The notes: generated by a model from the sequence alone, not told the origin. Counted from the stretch's first letter, positions 2,410 through 11,911 are shown. The stretch is DNA of 64,000 nucleotides from an uncultured Spirochaetota bacterium (GCA_963820525.1 CAWGAA010000001.1:2592001-2656000), one strand, 5' to 3'. Made by a program: numbers and translations.

Positions 2410-3684
2410 CTAGGGCCGCACACGCTTCCTGTCCCTCGGGAACAGGGCGGCCTCCTTGACGTTGGCCAGTCCCAGCACCTTCTGCGTCAGCCTCTCAAGC
2501 CCGATGGCGAACCCCCCATGGGGCGGGCAGCCGTATTTGAAGATGGACAGGTAGTCGGAGAGCCCCGCCGGATCCAGGCCGAAGGTCCGGGCGTTTTCAA
2601 CAAGCATTTCATGGCGATTGATCCTCATGCCGCCCGACGTGACCTCGAGGCCCCGGAAGAGCAGGTCGAAGGCCCTGGTCTTGTTGTTCTCCGCGGGGAA
2701 GGTATAGAAGGGGCGTGACTTGCGCGGGTAGGCATGGACGAACACGGCATCGATTCCGGCCTCAACGGCCGCCCACTCGCAGAGGGTGCGCTCGCCCTCC
2801 GGCGTGATCTCGTACACCTTCTTGCCCGTCTGCCGGGAAATAATCTCCCGCGCCTCGTCGTATGCCACGCGGGGGATCTTGGGGCACAGCTCGGGCTCGG
2901 GCACCGATGCGTTCCACGCGGCCAGGTCCCCGGCGTTCTCCTCCGTGAGCCCGGAGAAGATCGATTGCAGGATCCCGACCTCCAGGTCCATCAGCTCCAT
3001 CTCGCTTTCGATGAAGGCCATCTCGACGTCCAGCGACACGAACTCGTTGATATGACGGGGAGTGTCGTGCTTTTCGGCGCGGTAGGCGGGGCCGATCTCG
3101 AAGACGCGCTCCAGGCCCGAGGCGATCATTGCCTGCTTGTACAGCTGCGGGGATTGCGTCAGGTACACGCGGGTGTCGAAGTACTCGACGGCGAAAAGGC
3201 CGGTGCCGCCCTCGGTCCCGGTGCCGATGAGCTTCGATGTCTTGATCTCGAAAAACCCCTGGCTCCTCAGGTACTCCGAGAACCTCTTGAGGATGGTTGA
3301 CTGCACTCGGAAGATCGAAAGGATCTGGGGGTTCCTGAGGCTGATCATCCTGTTGTCGAGGATCGATTCGAGGGAGAGCTTGTCCGGCTCCTGGTTCACG
3401 GGAATGGGGAGGTCGGGGGCCGCTGCGGAAAGCACCTCGATCCCGGAAACCCGAACCTCGGCCCCGCCGGGGGCCTTCGTGTTGGCCGCCGCCAGGCCGG
3501 AGACGCGCACCACGGACTCCAGCGTCACATCCGGCTTGGCTTCGAAGACGAGCTGAACGATGCCGGAGCGGTCACGCAGGAGGAGAAACGAAACCTTGCC
3601 CAGGTCTCGTATCCTGTGAACCCATCCGAAGAGGGTGATCTCCTGCCCCACGCGGGAGGCGACGTCACGAGCCAGCGTCCGCAT
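2410..3684 (-). CDS. aspS: Aspartate--tRNA(Asp/Asn) ligase, archaeal-type non-discriminating AspRS
   Basis: GWVHRIRDLG OB-fold, KAPGG loop, YLTQSPQLYKQ, motif 2 YRAE, motif 3 PPHGGFAIGLERL; about 424 aa, no GAD insert. Confidence 0.93.
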   Translation of the reverse strand: MRTLARDVASRVGQEITLFGWVHRIRDLGKVSFLLLRDRSGIVQLVFEAKPDVTLESVVRVSGLAAANTKAPGGAEVRVSGIEVLSAAAPDLPIPVNQEPDKLSLESILDNRMISLRNPQILSIFRVQSTILKRFSEYLRSQGFFEIKTSKLIGTGTEGGTGLFAVEYFDTRVYLTQSPQLYKQAMIASGLERVFEIGPAYRAEKHDTPRHINEFVSLDVEMAFIESEMELMDLEVGILQSIFSGLTEENAGDLAAWNASVPEPELCPKIPRVAYDEAREIISRQTGKKVYEITPEGERTLCEWAAVEAGIDAVFVHAYPRKSRPFYTFPAENNKTRAFDLLFRGLEVTSGGMRINRHEMLVENARTFGLDPAGLSDYLSIFKYGCPPHGGFAIGLERLTQKVLGLANVKEAALFPRDRKRVRP

Positions 3685-6076
3685 TGCCCAGCTCCATCCT
3701 TTCCTGCGCTTCCTCCTCGCTCTCGGAAAAGGCAAGACAGGCGAGGAGCTTCGTGTAAGCAGATTCGGTGGTGAGCGATCCCATGGGAACCGCCCCTTCG
3801 CGCCACAGCTCGTGGGAGGTCACATAGCGGGAGAAGTCCACGATCCCTTCCTGCTGGGAGGTGCAGTAGATCTTCACGCCCCTCTCCTTTGCCTCGAGGA
3901 AGGCCTTTCGAAGCGAGTAGGGAGACTCGCGGAGGTTCGCCGTTCCGGTGTCGTACAGCTCCAGGATGAACCAGCGGATGCCCTTGTTCATGAAATCGAT
4001 GAGATGCTCGCCTCTCATGCCGGGATAGATGCGCAGAATCAGCGTGGCGTTGATGGCCGCCTCAAGGCGGGCACGGATCCTCTCCTTGTCCACGGCGAAG
4101 GGCTCGGCAAACAGGGGGTTTGCCGTGTGCACGCGATGGGGCATATTCCAGTTCCTGAATCCGTCAGTGGCCACCCTCTCGAATCTGAGGTTGAGGGGAG
4201 AGAACACCTCGGAGCCGAACACGACGTAAACGCCGGGGGCTTCGCTGGAGGCCACCTGGATGGCCTTTCGAAGATTGGGGATCGCGTCGCTTCCCTCCCT
4301 GCCGGGGGGCTGGAGGGATGCCGTGAAGACGATCGGCACGGGCGGCTGGGGAAACAGCCAGAAGAGGAGGGAGGAGGTGTAGGCGAGGGTGTCGGTCCCA
4401 TGGGCCACGACGATCCCCGCAGCCCTGCCCTGATGCAGGTTCTCTTCGATGCTCGCGATGAGCCTGGCCCAGTCCTCCGGAGTGATCTCCTCGCTCAACA
4501 GCTCTCCCAGCTCCGCCTCTTCGAAGGCGAGGCTCTTGGAGAACTTCCCCTCGGCCTCCAGCATCTTCATGATCTGGGTGGAGTCGCCTCCGACGATATC
4601 CCCCGTTTCCGAGACTCGGCCCACGATCGCCCCTCCGAAGGAGAGGATCCTGATCACGGAGAGGGCGAGCTTTTCCCGAACGAGGCTCTGCACGAGGGCG
4701 GGATCCGCCCTGCCCGAGGTGGCCTTCATGATCTCCCCGACCAGGTAGCCGGTGGGCTTGTGGTCGCCCCTCCTGATTGCCTCGACGATGGAGGCGTTCT
4801 CCTTCATCACGCGATCGATATAACCGCCCAGGACCTTGGGGTCCGTTATCTGCTCCCAGCCTTTCTCGCGAATAATCGCCAGGGGATCCTTGTCCTCCAG
4901 AAAGACGCTCTCGAGGACCGCCTTGGCGATCTTTCCATGAATGCGCTTGGAGGCCAGAAGCGTCAGAAGCTCGCACAGCCGCTTGGGGGTGAGGGGGCTG
5001 GCGGAGAGGGAAACCTCGGCGCGGTTCAAATGCTTCCGCACGTCCGAAGCAAGCCACAGCGCCACACTCTGGGCATCGGCTCCCAGGGCCACGGTCTGCT
5101 CGAAGAAGTCGGCCTGCTCCTTTTCAGCGCAGAGGTACTCCGCCTGCTCCTCGCTCAAGCCGTAGTGGGCAATGAACCTTTGCTTGACTGCCTCGGGAAG
5201 TTCCACGAGGGAATCCTCGACAGCGGAGAGAAACTTCTCGTCGGCAACGAAGGGGGGCAGGTCCGGCTCGGGGAAATAGCGATAGTCTGCCGAGGCTTCC
5301 TTGGTTCTCATTCCTTCCGTGATGTCGCGATTCTCGTTCCACAGGCGGGTCTCCTGCTTCACCGTGCCCCCGCGCTCCAGGATTTCCTCCTGCCGCTCGA
5401 TCTCGTAGCTGATGGCCTTTCTGACGAACTTGAAGGAGTTCAAGTTCTTCACCTCGACCTTGTTGCCCAGGCCCTGGCCCGCCAGGTTCACGGAAACATT
5501 GGCGTCGCAGCGCAGGGAGCCTTCCTCCATGTTTCCGTCGCAGACCCCCAGGTAGCGGACCATGCGCCGCAGGTGCTGGAGGAAGATCTCGGCCTCTTCG
5601 CCCACCTCCATGTCGGGCTGCGTGACGATCTCCAGGAGGGGAGTGCCGGTCCTGTTGAAGTCCAGAAGCGTCACGTCTCCCGCGTGGATCATCTTTCCCG
5701 CATCCTCCTCGAGGTGGACCTCGCGGATGCGAACGCGCCGCTTGCGTTTTCGAAGCTCGATCTCCAGGAAGCCGTCGGTGCCGAGGGGAGAGCGGAACTG
5801 GGAGATCTGATAGTTCTTGGGCAGGTCGGGGTAGAAGTAGTTCTTCCTCTCGAACAGGGTTGACTTGGAGAGCGTGCAGCTCAGGGCCCGCGCCACCACG
5901 TAGCCCATGCGGATCGCCTCGAGGTTCAGGGCAGGGAGCACTCCGGGATAGCCCATGCACACGGGGCACACATTGGTGTTGGGCTCGTCTCCGAAGGCGG
6001 CGCGGCAGCCGCAGAACACCTTCGTGCGGGTGAGCAGCTGGATGTGGACCTCAAGGCCGAGGAACGACGCGTACAC
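3665..6076 (-). CDS. gatB: Asp/Glu-tRNA amidotransferase subunit B fused to a C-terminal asparaginase-like domain
   Basis: N-terminal GLEVHIQL, RKNYFYPDLPKNYQISQ, HLEEDAGK, RCDANVS, YRYFPEPDL; extra ~330 aa with HGTDTLAY, SDA..NL, GVYVVF, YPG. Confidence 0.93.
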   Translation of the reverse strand: MYASFLGLEVHIQLLTRTKVFCGCRAAFGDEPNTNVCPVCMGYPGVLPALNLEAIRMGYVVARALSCTLSKSTLFERKNYFYPDLPKNYQISQFRSPLGTDGFLEIELRKRKRRVRIREVHLEEDAGKMIHAGDVTLLDFNRTGTPLLEIVTQPDMEVGEEAEIFLQHLRRMVRYLGVCDGNMEEGSLRCDANVSVNLAGQGLGNKVEVKNLNSFKFVRKAISYEIERQEEILERGGTVKQETRLWNENRDITEGMRTKEASADYRYFPEPDLPPFVADEKFLSAVEDSLVELPEAVKQRFIAHYGLSEEQAEYLCAEKEQADFFEQTVALGADAQSVALWLASDVRKHLNRAEVSLSASPLTPKRLCELLTLLASKRIHGKIAKAVLESVFLEDKDPLAIIREKGWEQITDPKVLGGYIDRVMKENASIVEAIRRGDHKPTGYLVGEIMKATSGRADPALVQSLVREKLALSVIRILSFGGAIVGRVSETGDIVGGDSTQIMKMLEAEGKFSKSLAFEEAELGELLSEEITPEDWARLIASIEENLHQGRAAGIVVAHGTDTLAYTSSLLFWLFPQPPVPIVFTASLQPPGREGSDAIPNLRKAIQVASSEAPGVYVVFGSEVFSPLNLRFERVATDGFRNWNMPHRVHTANPLFAEPFAVDKERIRARLEAAINATLILRIYPGMRGEHLIDFMNKGIRWFILELYDTGTANLRESPYSLRKAFLEAKERGVKIYCTSQQEGIVDFSRYVTSHELWREGAVPMGSLTTESAYTKLLACLAFSESEEEAQERMELGNADAGS

Positions 6077-6079
6077 GCT

Positions 6080-7474
6080 TCAGCTCCACTTCATGGGGAA
6101 TCCCGGGGGATCCGGGGAAGGGAACACCTTCTCATACGCCGCGCAGGCCTGGAAGAGCCGAGACTCGCCAAAGGCCGGCGCGATGAACTGCATCCCGATG
6201 GGAAGCCCGCCCTCCAGCGCGGCGGGGAAGGAGAGGGCGGGGAGCCCCGCCAGGTTGGCCGAGCAGGTGAAGATATCGGCAAGCTTCTGGGAGAACGGGT
6301 CTGCCTCCGCGCTTCCCCTCTCGAATGCGGGAACCGGGTAGACCGGCATGAGAATGAGGTCCACGGCGGCGAAGGCCTTCTGGAAATCATTGCGGATCGC
6401 GGTTCGCACCTTCTGCGCCTTCAGGTAGTACTGGTCCTGGAAGCCCGAGCGAAGCACATATGTGCCCAAAAGGATGCGCAGCTTCACTTCGTCGCCGAAG
6501 CCCTCGTTGCGCGTGAGAAGCATCATCTGCTCCGGGTTATCGGCCTGGGCCGCACGCGAGCCGTAGCGTACCCCGTCGAAGCGCGCGAGGTTGGCGCTCG
6601 CCTCCGCGGTGGCGATGATGTAGTAGCAGGAAACGACGTGCTCAAGGGTCGGGAGGGTGACTTCCTGGACCGCGAAGCCCAGCTTGCCCAGGGCGGCCTT
6701 CGTGTTCTCCAGGGTCTTCTTCACGTCGGGGTGCATGGGAACCTCGGCGCATTCGCGGGGGACCCCGATGACGATCTTTCCCGCTTTGGAGGCCGGCCGA
6801 GGATCGGCGGGCTGATAGGGCAGCGAGGAGTGATCGAGGGGATCCTGGCTCCGCATCGCGCCGAAGACCTCGGAGGCGGTGGAAACAGTCTTTGCCGCCA
6901 CCCCGATCACTTCGAGTGAGGAGGCATAGGCCACCAAGCCGTAGCGGGAGACCGATCCATAGGTGGGCTTCAGGCCATAGACGCCGCAGAAAGCGGCGGG
7001 CTGCCGGACGGAGCCTCCCGTGTCGGAGCCGAGGGCGAAGGGAACGATTCCCGAGGCGACGGCTGCCGCGGATCCGCCGCTGGACCCCCCGGGCACGCGC
7101 TTGAGGTCCCAGGGGTTGGCGGTCTTTTGGAAGGCCGAGTTCTCGGTGGAGGAGCCCATGCCGAACTCATCCAGGTTGGTTTTTCCAGCTACCACGGCGC
7201 CCGCGGCCTGGAGCCGGGCCACGGCGGTAGCGGTGTAGGGCGACACGAAGGAGCCGAGGATGCGCGAGCCGCAGGTCAACCGGAACGATCGGACGGCGAT
7301 ATTGTCCTTCACTGCGAAGGGCACCCCTGCAAGAAGGCCGGACGCCGCCGAATCTTCACCGCCCAGAGCGGGATCGAACTGGAGAAATGCGCGCACCTTC
7401 TCTTCCCGGGCCAGGGCTTGAGTCTTCCACTTTTCGCTCACTGCCCCGGGCGCCGCGATGCCGTGCCAATCCAT
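6080..7474 (-). CDS. gatA: Asp/Glu-tRNA amidotransferase subunit A
   Basis: Amidase signature: AVKDNI, GKTNLDEFGMGSS, PGGSSGGSAA, GSDTGGSVRQPA. Confidence 0.96.
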   Translation of the reverse strand: MDWHGIAAPGAVSEKWKTQALAREEKVRAFLQFDPALGGEDSAASGLLAGVPFAVKDNIAVRSFRLTCGSRILGSFVSPYTATAVARLQAAGAVVAGKTNLDEFGMGSSTENSAFQKTANPWDLKRVPGGSSGGSAAAVASGIVPFALGSDTGGSVRQPAAFCGVYGLKPTYGSVSRYGLVAYASSLEVIGVAAKTVSTASEVFGAMRSQDPLDHSSLPYQPADPRPASKAGKIVIGVPRECAEVPMHPDVKKTLENTKAALGKLGFAVQEVTLPTLEHVVSCYYIIATAEASANLARFDGVRYGSRAAQADNPEQMMLLTRNEGFGDEVKLRILLGTYVLRSGFQDQYYLKAQKVRTAIRNDFQKAFAAVDLILMPVYPVPAFERGSAEADPFSQKLADIFTCSANLAGLPALSFPAALEGGLPIGMQFIAPAFGESRLFQACAAYEKVFPSPDPPGFPMKWS

Positions 7475-7481
7475 AGGACCT

Positions 7482-7760
7482 CTATAATACGTTGGGGATG
7501 ACGATGAAGCGGTCTTCCCGCTGGGGAGCGTTATCGAGAAGCCGGTCGGTATCGACGCCGGCTGACTCCCTGTCTTCTCGGAGCCGGTTTTCCTTCAAGA
7601 GGGCATGTGTCGTGGGTTGGAGCGCCTCGACATCGAGGCTCCTCATGTGAGAGAAGTAGCCCAGCATCTGTTCGACGGCCTGCCGGAGCTTCTCCACCTC
7701 ATGCGGCTTCAGAGAGAGTCGCGCCATGCGGGCGGTAGTGTACAGCTCCTCGGCATCCAT
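7482..7760 (-). CDS. gatC: Asp/Glu-tRNA amidotransferase subunit C
   Basis: 92 aa, ARMARL...LREDR...NAPQREDRFIVIPNVL; directly upstream of gatA. Confidence 0.92.
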   Translation of the reverse strand: MDAEELYTTARMARLSLKPHEVEKLRQAVEQMLGYFSHMRSLDVEALQPTTHALLKENRLREDRESAGVDTDRLLDNAPQREDRFIVIPNVL

Positions 7761-7973
7761 GGCAGAGCATTAAACCCGGAGCCCAGCGCCATGTCAAGGC
7801 GCCGGAAGCGCTCGGGATCTTACGGAAGGAGCTTGACGGAGAGAATGGCGATATTTTACATTATTGAAGGGATATCGAGGCTTCTCCTGTCGGGCGGAGA
7901 CTTTCTCTGGCGTTCAAAGCCGCTATTATCCAAGGAATACTCCGTTCTCGACCGTCATCGGTGTAAAAAAAAT

Positions 7974-8001
7974 TTGACGGTAGAGAAGAGCATGGTACAA
8001 T
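7974..8001 (+). promoter_or_regulatory. Putative sigma70 promoter for the GH63-like gene
   Basis: TTGACG-16 nt-TACAAT with TGn extended -10. Confidence 0.5.
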
Positions 8002-8032
8002 ACGGCAACCAAACCAAGAGCGAGGAATGTGA

Positions 8033-9454
8033 GTGGTCAAAAAGGATTTCCCGAGGGTTCACTTCTACGATCGAGAGCTGGTAGGGCTCTACGACGAGAC
8101 CTGGACGCTCATGAAGGACTACTGGAAGAAGGGCACCCAGAGAAACGGATTCGCCTCCCGCTATTTCAATCACCCCGACAGCACGATGATCAATCAGTTC
8201 GAGGCATGCTTCGCCACCTTCTTCCTCGTGTACTCCAACCGCATCTTCCCCGTGCTTTCCCTGCTGGACAACTTCTACGGCAAGCAGGAGGACTCCGGCG
8301 CGATCAGGGGGGAGTACAGCGAAGAGGATGGAAGGCCGCTGCACCGGCGCGACAACCCCAAGGGAATCCTCCCTCCGCTTTTCGCCTGGGCCGAGCATAA
8401 CATCTATCACAAGCTTGGGGCGAAGAAGCGAATCCGGGACGTTCTTCCAACCCTCGAGCGCTACTACCAGTGGATAGAGGATACCTTCAAGCTGGAAAAC
8501 GGCCTGTTCTCGGTCCCCCTTTCCGCCACGATGATGGACAATTCTCCCCGGGAAGACATGCACTTCCCCATCGACTTCAACTCCCAGATGGCGCTCTTCG
8601 CCTACTACATGTCGGAGCTCGCCGACATCATCAACGACAAGGAAACCAACTACAAGTACAGGAAGAGCTACTTCTCGCTGAAGACAAAGATCAACTCCCT
8701 GATGTGGGACGAGAGGGACGGCTTCTACTACGATCTGGACGCACGGGAGAAACGGCTGCGCGTCAAGACGATCGCCTCGTTCTGGCCCCTGATTGCCGAG
8801 ATTCCCAACGAAGCCAGGGGAGAGAGGCTCATCGACCACCTGGTGGATCCCCACGAGTTCGGGATCGAGAATCCCTTCCCGACCCTGGCAGTGAAGGACA
8901 AGCACTTCGACCCCATCGGGATGGGCTACCGCGGCTCGGTGTTTCCGCCCTTCAACTATATGGTCATCAAGGGCCTGGAGAAATACAAGAGGTTCGACCT
9001 CGCCCGCGAGTTCGCCATCCGCCACCTCTACTACGTTCTGGACGGGCTCTACCCGAATAACGGCAAGAAGGGTTCCCTCTTCGAAGCCTATGCGCCCCAA
9101 ACCGAGGGTCCCGCAAAGTGGCCGGGGAAAAGGGGCTTCCCGAGGTCCATGTTCCTCCCCTCCACCGCCATTTCAACGGTTTCCCTCATGATGGAGAACA
9201 TCATCGGGCTGGACATTTCCCTGCCGAGGAAGACGGTGGATTGGACCATCCCCACCCTCGAGATGATGGGAATCGAGGACCTGGCGCTGAAGAGGAACCT
9301 CATCACCATTCTGAGCAGCAAGAGCACGAGGGGCTGGGAGATACATCTGGAGAGCGAAAAGCTCTACTACCTCACGATCGACCTGTTCGGGGCGAAAAAC
9401 AAGACCCTCCCCATCCCTTCAGGCAAGTGCTCCATCCTGGTGGACAAGATATAG
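8033..9454 (+). CDS. GH63/MGH1-like (trehalase-like) glycoside hydrolase
   Basis: MDNSPR, LMWDERDGFYYD, KTIASFWPL, YRGSVFPPFNYMVIKGL, FEAYAP motifs of (alpha/alpha)6 inverting glycosidases. Confidence 0.75.
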   Translation: MVKKDFPRVHFYDRELVGLYDETWTLMKDYWKKGTQRNGFASRYFNHPDSTMINQFEACFATFFLVYSNRIFPVLSLLDNFYGKQEDSGAIRGEYSEEDGRPLHRRDNPKGILPPLFAWAEHNIYHKLGAKKRIRDVLPTLERYYQWIEDTFKLENGLFSVPLSATMMDNSPREDMHFPIDFNSQMALFAYYMSELADIINDKETNYKYRKSYFSLKTKINSLMWDERDGFYYDLDAREKRLRVKTIASFWPLIAEIPNEARGERLIDHLVDPHEFGIENPFPTLAVKDKHFDPIGMGYRGSVFPPFNYMVIKGLEKYKRFDLAREFAIRHLYYVLDGLYPNNGKKGSLFEAYAPQTEGPAKWPGKRGFPRSMFLPSTAISTVSLMMENIIGLDISLPRKTVDWTIPTLEMMGIEDLALKRNLITILSSKSTRGWEIHLESEKLYYLTIDLFGAKNKTLPIPSGKCSILVDKI

Positions 9455-9469
9455 CACACGGGCTCTCGA

Positions 9470-10057
9470 TTATAAGAGACTTCGCCCCTTGAACGACCGG
9501 GAGAGGGTCTGCTTGTCGGCAAATTCGAGGTCCCCCCCGACGGGAAGACCGAAAGCGATCCGTGAGACCTTGGCCCCGGTATCCTTGAGCGCCTTCACGA
9601 GATAGAGGGCCGTGGTTTCGCCCTCAACCGTAGGATTGGTGGCGACGATCACTTCCCTGACCGCGCCCCTCCGCACCCTTTCGATGAGACTGGAAATCCG
9701 AAGCTCACCCGGTCCGACGCCGTCGATCGGGGAGATGGCTCCCATGAGCACATGGTAGAGGCCGTGGTACTCGCGGATGGATTCAATGGTGAGCACGTCC
9801 TTGGGCTCCTCCACCACGCAGATCTGGCCCGCGTCCCTGCTCTTATCCGTGCAGATCCCGCAGGGATCGATGTCGGTATATGTTCCGCATACGCTGCACG
9901 GGCGGATGGTCTGCTTGAGGCTTGCGATATCTTCGGCGAGCGAGCGCGCCAGGGACTCGTCGGCTCGAAGCAGGTAGTAGGCGATTCGAGAGGCGCTCTT
10001 TCTCCCCAGGCCGGGCAGGCGGGTGAGGTGTCCGATCAGCCTCTCCAGGGCGTTCAC
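9470..10057 (-). CDS. recR: Recombination mediator RecR
   Basis: LPGLGRKSA, C4 zinc finger, ICVVEEPKDV, ATNPTVEGETTA. Confidence 0.97.
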   Translation of the reverse strand: MNALERLIGHLTRLPGLGRKSASRIAYYLLRADESLARSLAEDIASLKQTIRPCSVCGTYTDIDPCGICTDKSRDAGQICVVEEPKDVLTIESIREYHGLYHVLMGAISPIDGVGPGELRISSLIERVRRGAVREVIVATNPTVEGETTALYLVKALKDTGAKVSRIAFGLPVGGDLEFADKQTLSRSFKGRSLL

Positions 10058-10059
10058 GG

Positions 10060-10380
10060 CTACAAGCCCAGAAGCCCCGGGGGAAGATCCAGCCCCGTGA
10101 ACTGGGACATCTCTTCCTTGAGCTTTTCCTTGAGCCTTTCCAGGGTGTCGGTGAGGGCCGCAAGCACGAGGTCTTCCAGCATCCTGATGTCCTTCTGATC
10201 CACAGCCTCGGGCGAAATGGCCACCTTCTCCACGCTCATCTGCCCGTTCATCTCGATCGTGACCAGACCTCCGCCCGCGGAGCCGCTGACCTTCAGGGAG
10301 CGGAGCTTCTCCTGGATCTCTCCCATACGGGCCTGGAGGTTCTGCAACTGCTTCAGCATATCAAAGGGGTTGATTGCCAT
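10060..10380 (-). CDS. ybaB: YbaB/EbfC nucleoid-associated protein
   Basis: GSAGGGLV, LEDLVLAA; dnaX-ybaB-recR synteny. Confidence 0.95.
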   Translation of the reverse strand: MAINPFDMLKQLQNLQARMGEIQEKLRSLKVSGSAGGGLVTIEMNGQMSVEKVAISPEAVDQKDIRMLEDLVLAALTDTLERLKEKLKEEMSQFTGLDLPPGLLGL

Positions 10381-11911
10381 GCCCCTCTCCTTTCACGACT
10401 TCTCCGCGAAAGACATTGCGGAGAAGATCCACACGAGGGTCGGGTACCACGACATCCGATTTGGCCTCCTGGAAGCTGACCTTGACCTTCACGGCCTTTC
10501 CGATGAGCTGGGAAACCCGCTCGCTCACGAGCTCCCTCTCCCTCATGATCTGCTCCCCCGCGAAGCGGTCCCGCGCAAGGAAGCCGAGCTCGAGCTCCGT
10601 ATCCGTGAAGACGGCGGATACGGCTTTTTCCAGCCATGAGGAGATCGACGGCTTCTCCCGACGGAAGCCCTCGCACAGCCGCTTCACGATCTCGCCGGCG
10701 TCGGGATTCTCCGCCTGTCGCCGGACAGCCGCCGGCTGGGCCCGGGCAGCCGCTTTCACTCCCGGAGTGGACACGATCTCGCCCTTGATCTTCGCCAGGG
10801 CTTCCCGTATCTCGGACGGGGAGATCATCCTGTCCAGCTCCACGAGCCGCGAGACGGCGAGCTCCAGCTCGAAGCGCTGGTTGAGCGAAAAACGGATGTT
10901 TCTATAGAGGGCCAAGAGGAGCTCAATCGCCTTTTCGATCTGGGGAGCCGACAGGGACTCGAGCACTCCGGCATCGAAGTCCTCGGCCGCGTATCCAAGG
11001 AGAGTATCCCGTGTGATTCCGCTCTTGATGAAGAGGAGGTTCCTGAAATACTCGCAGAGGTCTGCGACGAACTGCTCTATGGAGACGCCGGAGGCGAGAA
11101 CCTGATCGAGCCTCTCGAAGACCTTCCCCACATCGCCCGAACGCAAGAGGCGCGCCAGCTCGTTCATCTCGTCGATGCCGAGGACACCGAGCTTTTCCCT
11201 GATGTTCTCCAGGGTGATGGTGCCGGCGGAGAACGAGACGATCTGGTCGAGGAGCGTATAAGCGTCGCGGAGGCTTCCCGTCGCCTCCTTGGCTATCCAG
11301 GTGAGAGCCCTTTCCTCGGATTTCACGCCGAGCTCTCCCGCCGCCTCCCGGAGCTTTTCCTTGATCTCCGCCGTGGAGATGAGGCGGAAGTTGTACTGCT
11401 GGCAGCGGGAGCGGATCGTTGCGGGGACCTTGTGCACCTCGGTGGTGGCGAAAATGAACACGATGTACGGCGGAGGCTCTTCGATGGTTTTCAAAAGCGC
11501 GTTGAAAGCGCTGTTGGAAAGCATATGGACTTCATCGATGATATAGATCTTGTGCCGGGCGCTGTTGGGAGCGAAGAGGACCTCGTCGCGGATCTCCCGC
11601 ACGTCGTTCACGCTCGTGTTGGAGGCCCCATCGATCTCGATCACGTCCAGCGAGGAGCTGTGCGCGATCTCCTGACACGCGGGGCACGTTCCACAGGGCT
11701 TCTCCGTCGGGCCTTTTTCGCAATTCAGCGCCTTGGCGAGGATCCGCGCCACAGAGGTTTTTCCCACCCCCCGGGGGCCGGCAAAGAGGTACGCGTGGGC
11801 GATCCGTCCCTGCGCGATAGAACTGCGCAGGGTGGCTGCCACGAACTCCTGCCCGACGAGGTCGTCGAAGGTTTGAGGTCTCTTTCGAGTCGCGGTGACT
11901 TCGTACGGCAT
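10361..11911 (-). CDS. dnaX: DNA polymerase III subunit gamma/tau
   Basis: RPQTFDDLVGQE, GPRGVGKTS, IIDEVHMLS..AFNALLKTIEEPP, SRC. Confidence 0.97.
   Translation of the reverse strand: MPYEVTATRKRPQTFDDLVGQEFVAATLRSSIAQGRIAHAYLFAGPRGVGKTSVARILAKALNCEKGPTEKPCGTCPACQEIAHSSSLDVIEIDGASNTSVNDVREIRDEVLFAPNSARHKIYIIDEVHMLSNSAFNALLKTIEEPPPYIVFIFATTEVHKVPATIRSRCQQYNFRLISTAEIKEKLREAAGELGVKSEERALTWIAKEATGSLRDAYTLLDQIVSFSAGTITLENIREKLGVLGIDEMNELARLLRSGDVGKVFERLDQVLASGVSIEQFVADLCEYFRNLLFIKSGITRDTLLGYAAEDFDAGVLESLSAPQIEKAIELLLALYRNIRFSLNQRFELELAVSRLVELDRMISPSEIREALAKIKGEIVSTPGVKAAARAQPAAVRRQAENPDAGEIVKRLCEGFRREKPSISSWLEKAVSAVFTDTELELGFLARDRFAGEQIMRERELVSERVSQLIGKAVKVKVSFQEAKSDVVVPDPRVDLLRNVFRGEVVKGEGHGNQPL

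Follow-up and report, generated by a model that had tools for sequence, protein, structure and literature searches.

We have analyzed a stretch of 64,000 nucleotides from an uncultured Spirochaetota bacterium (GCA_963820525.1, CAWGAA010000001.1:2592001-2656000; hereafter the window, with positions counted from its first letter), in which gatB, the gene for the B subunit of the tRNA-dependent amidotransferase GatCAB, continues in frame into an asparaginase-like domain. The gene is a single uninterrupted open reading frame (ORF) of 803 aa with a GTG start. The domain retains a type I asparaginase fold, has lost the catalytic nucleophile, is conserved among relatives, and is encoded in a conserved operon and genomic context. 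Our reading, to which we assign a probability of about 0.55, is that the extra 332 residues form a non-catalytic module through which GatCAB dimerizes and which probably binds a ligand. Both GatCAB and the transamidosome belong to the textbook account of translation, after decades of work on a few species. In a whole bacterial lineage, with cultured spirochaetes from termite guts and free-living ones among its members, the essential B subunit has gained a conserved pseudoenzyme, independently of the archaeal GatD-GatE pair.

The first 471 residues of the protein are those of a GatB equivalog, with 611.5 bits on NF004012 (cut-off 338) and 544 bits on TIGR00133 (cut-off 315). The Pfam domains GatB_N (PF02934, residues 6-283, 375 bits) and GatB_Yqey (PF02637, residues 323-470, 140 bits) were found above their cut-offs, and the cradle is 70-73% identical to that of the canonical GatBs of three treponeme genomes. 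The usual GatB has about 475-500 aa and stops at the end of the YqeY tail, whereas here the chain goes on with the asparaginase fold, which was recognized, also above cut-off, by Asparaginase (PF00710, residues 475-647, 118 bits, E 3.5e-34) and Asparaginase_C (PF17763, residues 680-794, 47 bits). The complete type I asparaginase-like fold in frame after GatB, as proposed in the initial annotation of this DNA, is thus borne out by all four Pfam domains. The best sequence matches in the Protein Data Bank (PDB) were type I asparaginases of Thermococcales (E 1e-28 to 1e-34), and the score on the type I asparaginase model TIGR00519 (asnASE_I) was 128.8 bits, against a cut-off of 260.5.

The same frame of about 804 aa was found in hundreds of proteins of Spirochaetia, many of them on long contigs, which rules out an assembly artefact or a read-through and, with the survey of distribution that was run, establishes the fusion as real. 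When proteins of 441-1406 aa were searched with the domain, 708 matches with E <= 0.001 were obtained among the 8000 candidates scored; nearly all of the best 120 of these 708 measured about 804 aa and carried the four Pfam domains, and the named ones belonged to Spirochaetia. Within the window's own family a strong match was present in 22 of 24 genomes, the remaining two being 70% and 77% complete, and two more families of the same order carry the fusion. In an even sample of the phylum, a match with E <= 1e-25 was found in 15 of 401 genomes, and all fused forms fell within the window's class. The named carriers are Spirochaetota metagenome-assembled genomes (MAGs), Breznakiella homolactica, Treponema primitia and Gracilinema caldarium. 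Out of 1.84 billion cluster representatives, 41 scored E <= 1e-30, and the full-length ones measured 743-817 aa. The short ones (292-373 aa), considered as free-standing dead domains, begin inside the GatB tail or at MGGA and were discarded as fragments; both among the cluster representatives and in the tree described below, the nucleophile-less domain occurs solely fused to GatB or to a GatB-like core. The fused gene is the sole GatB_N locus in most genomes of the same family, a separate second locus being present in the window's genome and in those coded G031 and G038; this, and the conserved operon order, point to a housekeeping role for the fused GatB. The databases annotate these fused proteins plainly as GatB, and no paper on a GatB-asparaginase fusion was found in a literature search whose coverage left out subscription journals and supplements.

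We then consider the active site. The motifs SFGGA (residues 479-483), SEEITPEDW (528-536) and HGTDT (559-563) are present as initially described. In the HMMER alignment to the P. horikoshii asparaginase 1wls, Ala483, the last residue of SFGGA, aligns with the nucleophile Thr11. This residue is equivalent to Thr12, which is the primary nucleophile of class 1 asparaginases according to PMC12951835. In full-length homologs the position holds Ala (21/22) or Val (1/22). When 33 fused rows were checked at the 34 columns for which 50 free-standing relatives show a conservation of at least 85%, Thr was found at the nucleophile position in 49/50 free-standing and 0/33 fused rows, all 33 of the latter having Ala; among 25 fused representatives obtained by clustering at 50%, Ala was found in 21. 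The loss of the nucleophile is therefore real and family-wide, and with Ala in place of Thr the domain should not hydrolyse Asn or Gln, so that the initial reading of it as a pseudoenzyme is well founded.

The other residues of the pocket are kept to a large extent. Ser528, His559, Gly560, Thr561, Asp562, Thr563 and Tyr751 are retained in 32-33 of the 33 fused rows, and the column of Tyr751 has Tyr in 50/50 free and 32/33 fused rows; for asparaginases of type I, the Tyr that partners the nucleophile is supplied by the other subunit (PMC12951835). The catalytic Lys was initially thought to be lost as well, with Phe632 (in PLNLRF) at its position, and this part did not stand: the alignments to 1wls and 4q0m place Arg631 there, and the spacing from the Lys to downstream residues in free asparaginases and GatD-length proteins (+7 Asp, +9 Phe, +15 Pro) fits Arg631 exactly, with some uncertainty left by one HMMER alignment (9ufr) and by MAFFT, which shift the stretch by 1-3 residues. 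Position 631 is Lys in 19/22 full-length homologs and Arg in 3/22, including the window protein. Furthermore, CTSQQEG is, besides ELYDTGTA, an invariant motif specific to the family. To judge from its sequence, the domain is a naturally occurring Thr-to-Ala variant in which almost all of the pocket is otherwise preserved. The same single change was engineered in the mutants 7c8x (Blasnase T13A) and 5dnc (guinea pig T19A), whose PDB titles report bound L-Asn; these are laboratory mutants of free enzymes, whereas the window domain is a natural variant, long fixed and fused to GatB.

The AlphaFold model of the domain had a predicted local distance difference test score (pLDDT) of 93.6 and a predicted template modelling score (pTM) of 0.93, and in Foldseek it gave template modelling (TM) scores of 0.79-0.83 to the five archaeal type I asparaginases of ranks 1-6 and of 0.75-0.78 to GatD. 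When the domain was modelled as a homodimer, the interaction prediction score from aligned errors (ipSAE) was 0.87, versus 0.00 for the best of three controls; for proteins of solved structure, this mark was attained in 20 of 30 cases where one chain forms a pair and in 1 of 23 cases of a single chain. At least 82% of the contacts were common to the three dimer runs, with a partner pLDDT of at least 84. The modelled interface is that of the classical intimate asparaginase dimer, and it holds the pocket segments (domain residues 58-62, 90-92 and 160-164, the last being the region of position 631) and the family-specific motifs (235-249, 271-273 and 280-284). On this model the domain most likely dimerizes, and the oligomerizing role suggested in the initial annotation gains support from it. 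In the full-length model only three residues lie between the last tail helix and the first strand of the domain, so that a dimer would join two GatCAB complexes at their tails.

The fused gene is part of an operon of the order gatC-gatA-gatB-aspS, all on the minus strand. The ORFs and the Pfam and NCBIfam matches agree on this operon with its 803-aa GatB, and the initial statements that GatA is intact and that the co-encoded AspRS is of the non-discriminating kind were both supported. GatA shows, in addition to its Amidase match, the signature motifs KDN, GGSSGGS and GGSVRQPA, and we take the KDN, GGSSGGS and GGSxRxPA motifs to carry the catalytic triad. The aspS product scored 511 bits on NF003483 (aspartate--tRNA(Asn) ligase; cut-off 353). 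Only 3 nt separate the gatA stop from the gatB start, and the aspS ATG (position 3684) overlaps the 3′ end of gatB by 20 nt. A scan for promoters and terminators inside the operon gave no signal above chance. Like the Asn-transamidosome of Thermus thermophilus (non-discriminating AspRS, tRNA(Asn) and GatCAB), the window thus has a GatB core, GatA, GatC and a non-discriminating AspRS, known here from the genes of one operon.

The window genome encodes AsnRS (467 bits), GlnRS (699 bits) and a bacterial AspRS (721.5 bits), plus the archaeal-type AspRS; AsnRS was above cut-off in 20/24 genomes of the same family, and GlnRS was found at E <= 1e-100 in 20/24. AsnA was present in 0/29 and an AsnB-type gene in 4/29 genomes of the fusion families, versus AsnA and/or AsnB-type in 10/12 genomes from those families of the order that lack the fusion, a comparison in which the AsnB-type model, TIGR01536, also covers AsnB-like enzymes of other function, and which, the genomes being kin, reflects few independent events. 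As AsnRS, GlnRS and two AspRSs are present and AsnA and AsnB are mostly absent, the operon looks like the sole route to asparagine, and probably is the only one that the fusion organisms have. In Thermus and Deinococcus, as stated in PMC4206432, AspRS2 and GatCAB make asparagine on the tRNA despite the presence of AsnRS and GlnRS, and the window genome has the same arrangement of AsnRS, GlnRS and bacterial AspRS.

We propose that in this pathway GatA would remain the source of ammonia, and that the dimerized domain would tie two GatCAB complexes at their YqeY tails to form (GatCAB)2, an arrangement that would suit the dimeric non-discriminating AspRS encoded adjacently. If the domain dimerizes GatCAB, this would be a new architecture of the Asn-transamidosome. 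The pocket, preserved at the interface of the dimer, is probably still able to bind an amino acid, the obvious candidates being Asn and Asp, and its occupancy could be coupled to the activity or the assembly of the asparagine route; we infer the binding of a ligand, and any regulation with it, from the points set out above. The sensing of Asn, Gln or Asp suggested in the initial annotation would be of this kind. Binding of asparagine would be a rare kind of regulation of tRNA-dependent amino-acid synthesis and a clean natural example of an enzyme turned into a receptor by the loss of one residue. A more specific proposal, which we put forward as tentative and well short of an even chance, is that the domain acts as a natural substrate trap, that is, as an Asn (or Asp) receptor at the interface of the GatCAB dimer, through which the free amino-acid pool would switch the asparagine machine or the assembly with AspRS. 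The domain and the tRNA-binding tail of the treponeme paralogs described below would then be a free-standing regulator. If true, such a receptor would make this the first ligand-gated tRNA-dependent amidotransferase.

Several points weigh against the interpretation as a dimerizing, ligand-binding module. All the support for it is computational. Asparaginase dimers have been solved many times, and the result with the homodimer may therefore reflect likeness to known structures rather than binding by this copy. The full-length model had a pLDDT of 86.1 and good domains, but its pTM was 0.57, and it therefore gives no usable placement of the domain relative to GatB or AspRS. Four of the 25 fused representatives carry Thr or Ser (two each) at the nucleophile position and might be active. 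With regard to the pathway, a gene of the AsnB type (481 bits) and another gatA-gatB pair occur in the window genome, the breadth of TIGR01536 and the kinship of the genomes limit the AsnA/AsnB comparison, as said, and in Thermus and Deinococcus the same pathway operates with no domain of this kind. Finally, in a second kind of fusion, clade B, the domain is kept in proteins whose GatB core retains only about half of its invariant columns and whose genes have no gatA, gatC or aspS in the vicinity.

The division into two kinds of fusion is based on 71 loci, of which 31 were assigned to clade A and 38 to clade B, the other two being irrelevant short matches. In clade A, to which the window protein belongs, aspS lies directly downstream of the fused gatB in 31/31 loci, gatA lies upstream in 29/31, and gatC is 5′ of gatA in 28/31. 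The clade A GatB cores are 66-81% identical to that of the window in intact matches (in six copies that are fragmented or cut, the values, taken over part of the core, differ), and the asparaginase-like domain is 49-73% identical, similar to the helical and tail part of GatB. In clade B, which includes Treponema, Breznakiella and Gracilinema, the gene stands alone, with no gat or aspS genes within 5 kb; its GatB core is 35-44% identical to that of the window, and a canonical GatB is encoded elsewhere in the genome, as found in each of the three clade B genomes searched. Of the 110 columns that are invariant across the window protein, 14 clade A fusions and 4 canonical GatBs, the clade B cores retain 56-64, with H11R, H121R, K128R, E149R and D191N as recurrent changes. 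By region, the clade B identity is 47-51% in the asparaginase-like domain, 40-46% in the tail and 36-44% in the cradle. In the treponeme paralogs (L044-L094; e.g., L089, 3498-6002, of Breznakiella homolactica) both halves look retired, with Ala at the nucleophile position, and the neighbours of the Breznakiella paralog gave no functional hint.

Since clade B retains the domain, its job cannot be only the pairing of active GatCAB in a transamidosome; these paralogs argue for an independent role of the domain, perhaps together with the tRNA-binding tail, and hence a tRNA-linked role is the main rival. According to this alternative, the domain and the YqeY tail would serve to recognize tRNA(Asn) or its aminoacyl end, to hold it or to pass it on, for instance protecting Asn-tRNA or Asp-tRNA(Asn), with no need of GatB catalysis and with dimerization as a secondary matter. 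The solitary state of the 38 clade B loci in genomes that keep a separate canonical GatB, the eroded core with its recurrent substitutions, a tail and domain at least as conserved as the cradle, and the start of the domain three residues past the last tail helix all agree with it. However, the pocket recognizes the alpha-carboxylate in its free form, whereas aminoacyl-tRNA carries it as an ester, we know of no asparaginase-fold protein that binds RNA, and no positive evidence for such a role came out of the analysis; on balance we consider it rather improbable.

A further candidate, that the fused protein is a specialized second GatB, was rejected for the family, most relatives having only the fused GatB. 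The second gatA-gatB pair of the window genome (G000:C2, locus L028, 3926-7098; also L024 and L027) is canonical and sits between a UvrD-type helicase gene and folE2. Its GatB2 measures 497 aa and lacks the additional domain; identity to the window copies is 49% for GatA2 and 50% for the cradle of GatB2, and no GatC was recognized in the short ORF upstream of the pair.

It could also be argued that the domain is still an amidohydrolase, either as a GatD-like second source of ammonia or as an asparaginase, acting through Thr561, Asp562 and Lys/Arg631 or through an activated water. The substrate Ser, the Tyr of the partner and, of the triad, Thr561 and Asp562 are retained, with Lys or Arg at the position of the triad Lys, and the fused representatives with Thr or Ser at the nucleophile position are as expected from such a view. 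Residual catalysis is nevertheless unlikely: the position of Thr12, the established nucleophile (PMC12951835), is Ala in 33/33 fused rows, Thr-to-Ala mutants serve to trap the substrate, as the PDB titles indicate, the triad Lys is Arg in the window's subclade and the triad Thr is Leu (HGLDT) in a deeper fused clade, and an intact GatA is co-encoded. Very unlikely, finally, is a domain that no longer has any function and decays as the remnant of a formerly active fusion; this would fit the stepwise loss of catalytic residues across the fused clade but not the full-length frame, the 47-73% identity across a bacterial class, the dozens of invariant residues and a clade B domain better kept than the decayed GatB cradle, a pattern that suggests purifying selection on the domain.

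The origin of the domain was addressed with a tree of 85 rows, for which only domains of at least 270 residues were taken and, out of 105 free-standing rows, the first 55. The 19 fused rows together with the 8 fragments formed one clade (SH-aLRT 100), and the GatD-length proteins P0260 and P0274 nested elsewhere, among archaeal-type free asparaginases. Descent from GatD was rejected by this tree and by the scores on the GatD models (NF003217, 129 bits vs 310; TIGR02153, 123 bits vs 324), on which the matches to the fused domain begin only at model positions about 53-69. Hence the likeness to GatDE is convergent, and the GatDE-like architecture seen by the initial annotation is not one by descent. 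A scan with generic patterns for nearest free relatives adjacent to gatB gave matches of 24-35% identity, mainly archaeal gatD, and in 22/80 the neighbours included a gatE-like gene or aspS. One deep branch within the fused clade (P0152, P0154, P0156, P0157, P0160 and P0161) has MGGAI, SEN and HGLDT and no conserved Lys; no relative of this group was found by a contig scan with part of P0154 or in the 401 genomes of the phylum. The two fused representatives with Thr at the nucleophile position are P0136 (801 aa), which keeps SEE, HGTDT and the Lys and has a weak GatB core (278 bits, below cut-off), and P0155 (813 aa), with a good GatB core but with HGADT and no Lys.

In archaeal GatDE (1zq1, 2d6f), where GatD is an asparaginase-family glutaminase and GatE a GatB homolog, an asparaginase-fold module is joined to a GatB-family transamidase, as here. 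The GatD dimer forms the core of the alpha2-beta2 GatDE, which parallels the dimer proposed for the window domain. However, GatD forms a chain apart from GatE, has an N-terminal domain of its own, keeps the nucleophile Thr and supplies ammonia, whereas the window domain is fused to the C-terminus of GatB and has Ala, with GatA present. The type I asparaginases of Thermococcales (4q0m, 1wls, 5ot0) share with the window domain the two lobes and the predicted intimate dimer; the window domain differs from them in having no nucleophile Thr, Arg for Lys and the ELYDTGTA and CTSQQEG motifs, and in occurring only fused. The coordinates of the features are collected in Table 1.

Table 1. Genes, domains and residues of the gatC-gatA-gatB-aspS operon, in window coordinates.
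Feature	Position	Strand	Remarks
gatC	7482..7760	-	92 aa; Pfam GatC 58.8 bits
gatA, amidase-signature glutaminase subunit, looks intact	6080..7474	-	464 aa; Pfam Amidase 454.9 bits
Fused gatB	3665..6076	-	GatB residues 1-471 and asparaginase-like domain 472-803
GatB proper, residues 1-471	4664..6076	-	Cradle GatB_N 6-283, helical part, YqeY tail 323-470
Asparaginase-like domain, residues 472-803, with stop codon 3665-3667	3665..4663	-	Pfam Asparaginase and Asparaginase_C
Ala483 codon, position of nucleophile Thr (Thr12 of E. coli AnsB, Thr11 of 1wls)	4628..4630	-	Alignment to 1wls
S528-E-E-I-T-P-E-D-W536, substrate-binding Ser segment	4469..4495	-	Ser invariant in 83/83 rows; in predicted dimer interface
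H559-G-T-D-T563, with Thr and Asp of the Thr-Lys-Asp triad	4388..4402	-	Invariant in 22 close homologs
Arg631 codon, position of catalytic Lys	4184..4186	-	HMMER alignments to 1wls and 4q0m; spacing rule
E706-L-Y-D-T-G-T-A713, family-specific motif, C-terminal lobe	3938..3961	-	Invariant or nearly so; domain residues 235-249 in modelled interface
Tyr751 codon, Tyr contributed in type I asparaginases to the active site of the other subunit	3824..3826	-	Conserved in alignment
aspS, archaeal-type non-discriminating AspRS	2410..3684	-	424 aa from ATG 3684; NF003483 match

Some further observations concern asparaginases and fused loci outside the window. The window genome encodes, at G000:C1 (locus L002, 1498-2001, plus strand), a 167-aa asparaginase with the N-terminal lobe only, in which TGGT, HGTDT and the Lys of VRK are intact; it is possibly, by its sequence features, a short (type s) asparaginase, and it was the only candidate active asparaginase found in that genome. 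A locus from a MAG labelled as uncultured Alphaproteobacteria (L095) has a gatC-gatA-gatB-aspS order of the clade A type, with fragmented matches and a stop in the frame of the domain, and is possibly a case of misbinning or a decayed transferred copy. Within the window, the G+C content just upstream of gatC (7500-9500) is 0.56, down from about 0.62-0.66. An ORF divergent from the operon (8033-9454, plus strand) encodes an MGH1-like or trehalase-like glycoside hydrolase, and past it lie recR (9470-10057, minus strand) and dnaX, for the clamp-loader gamma/tau (10361-11911, minus strand), which are ordinary housekeeping neighbours.

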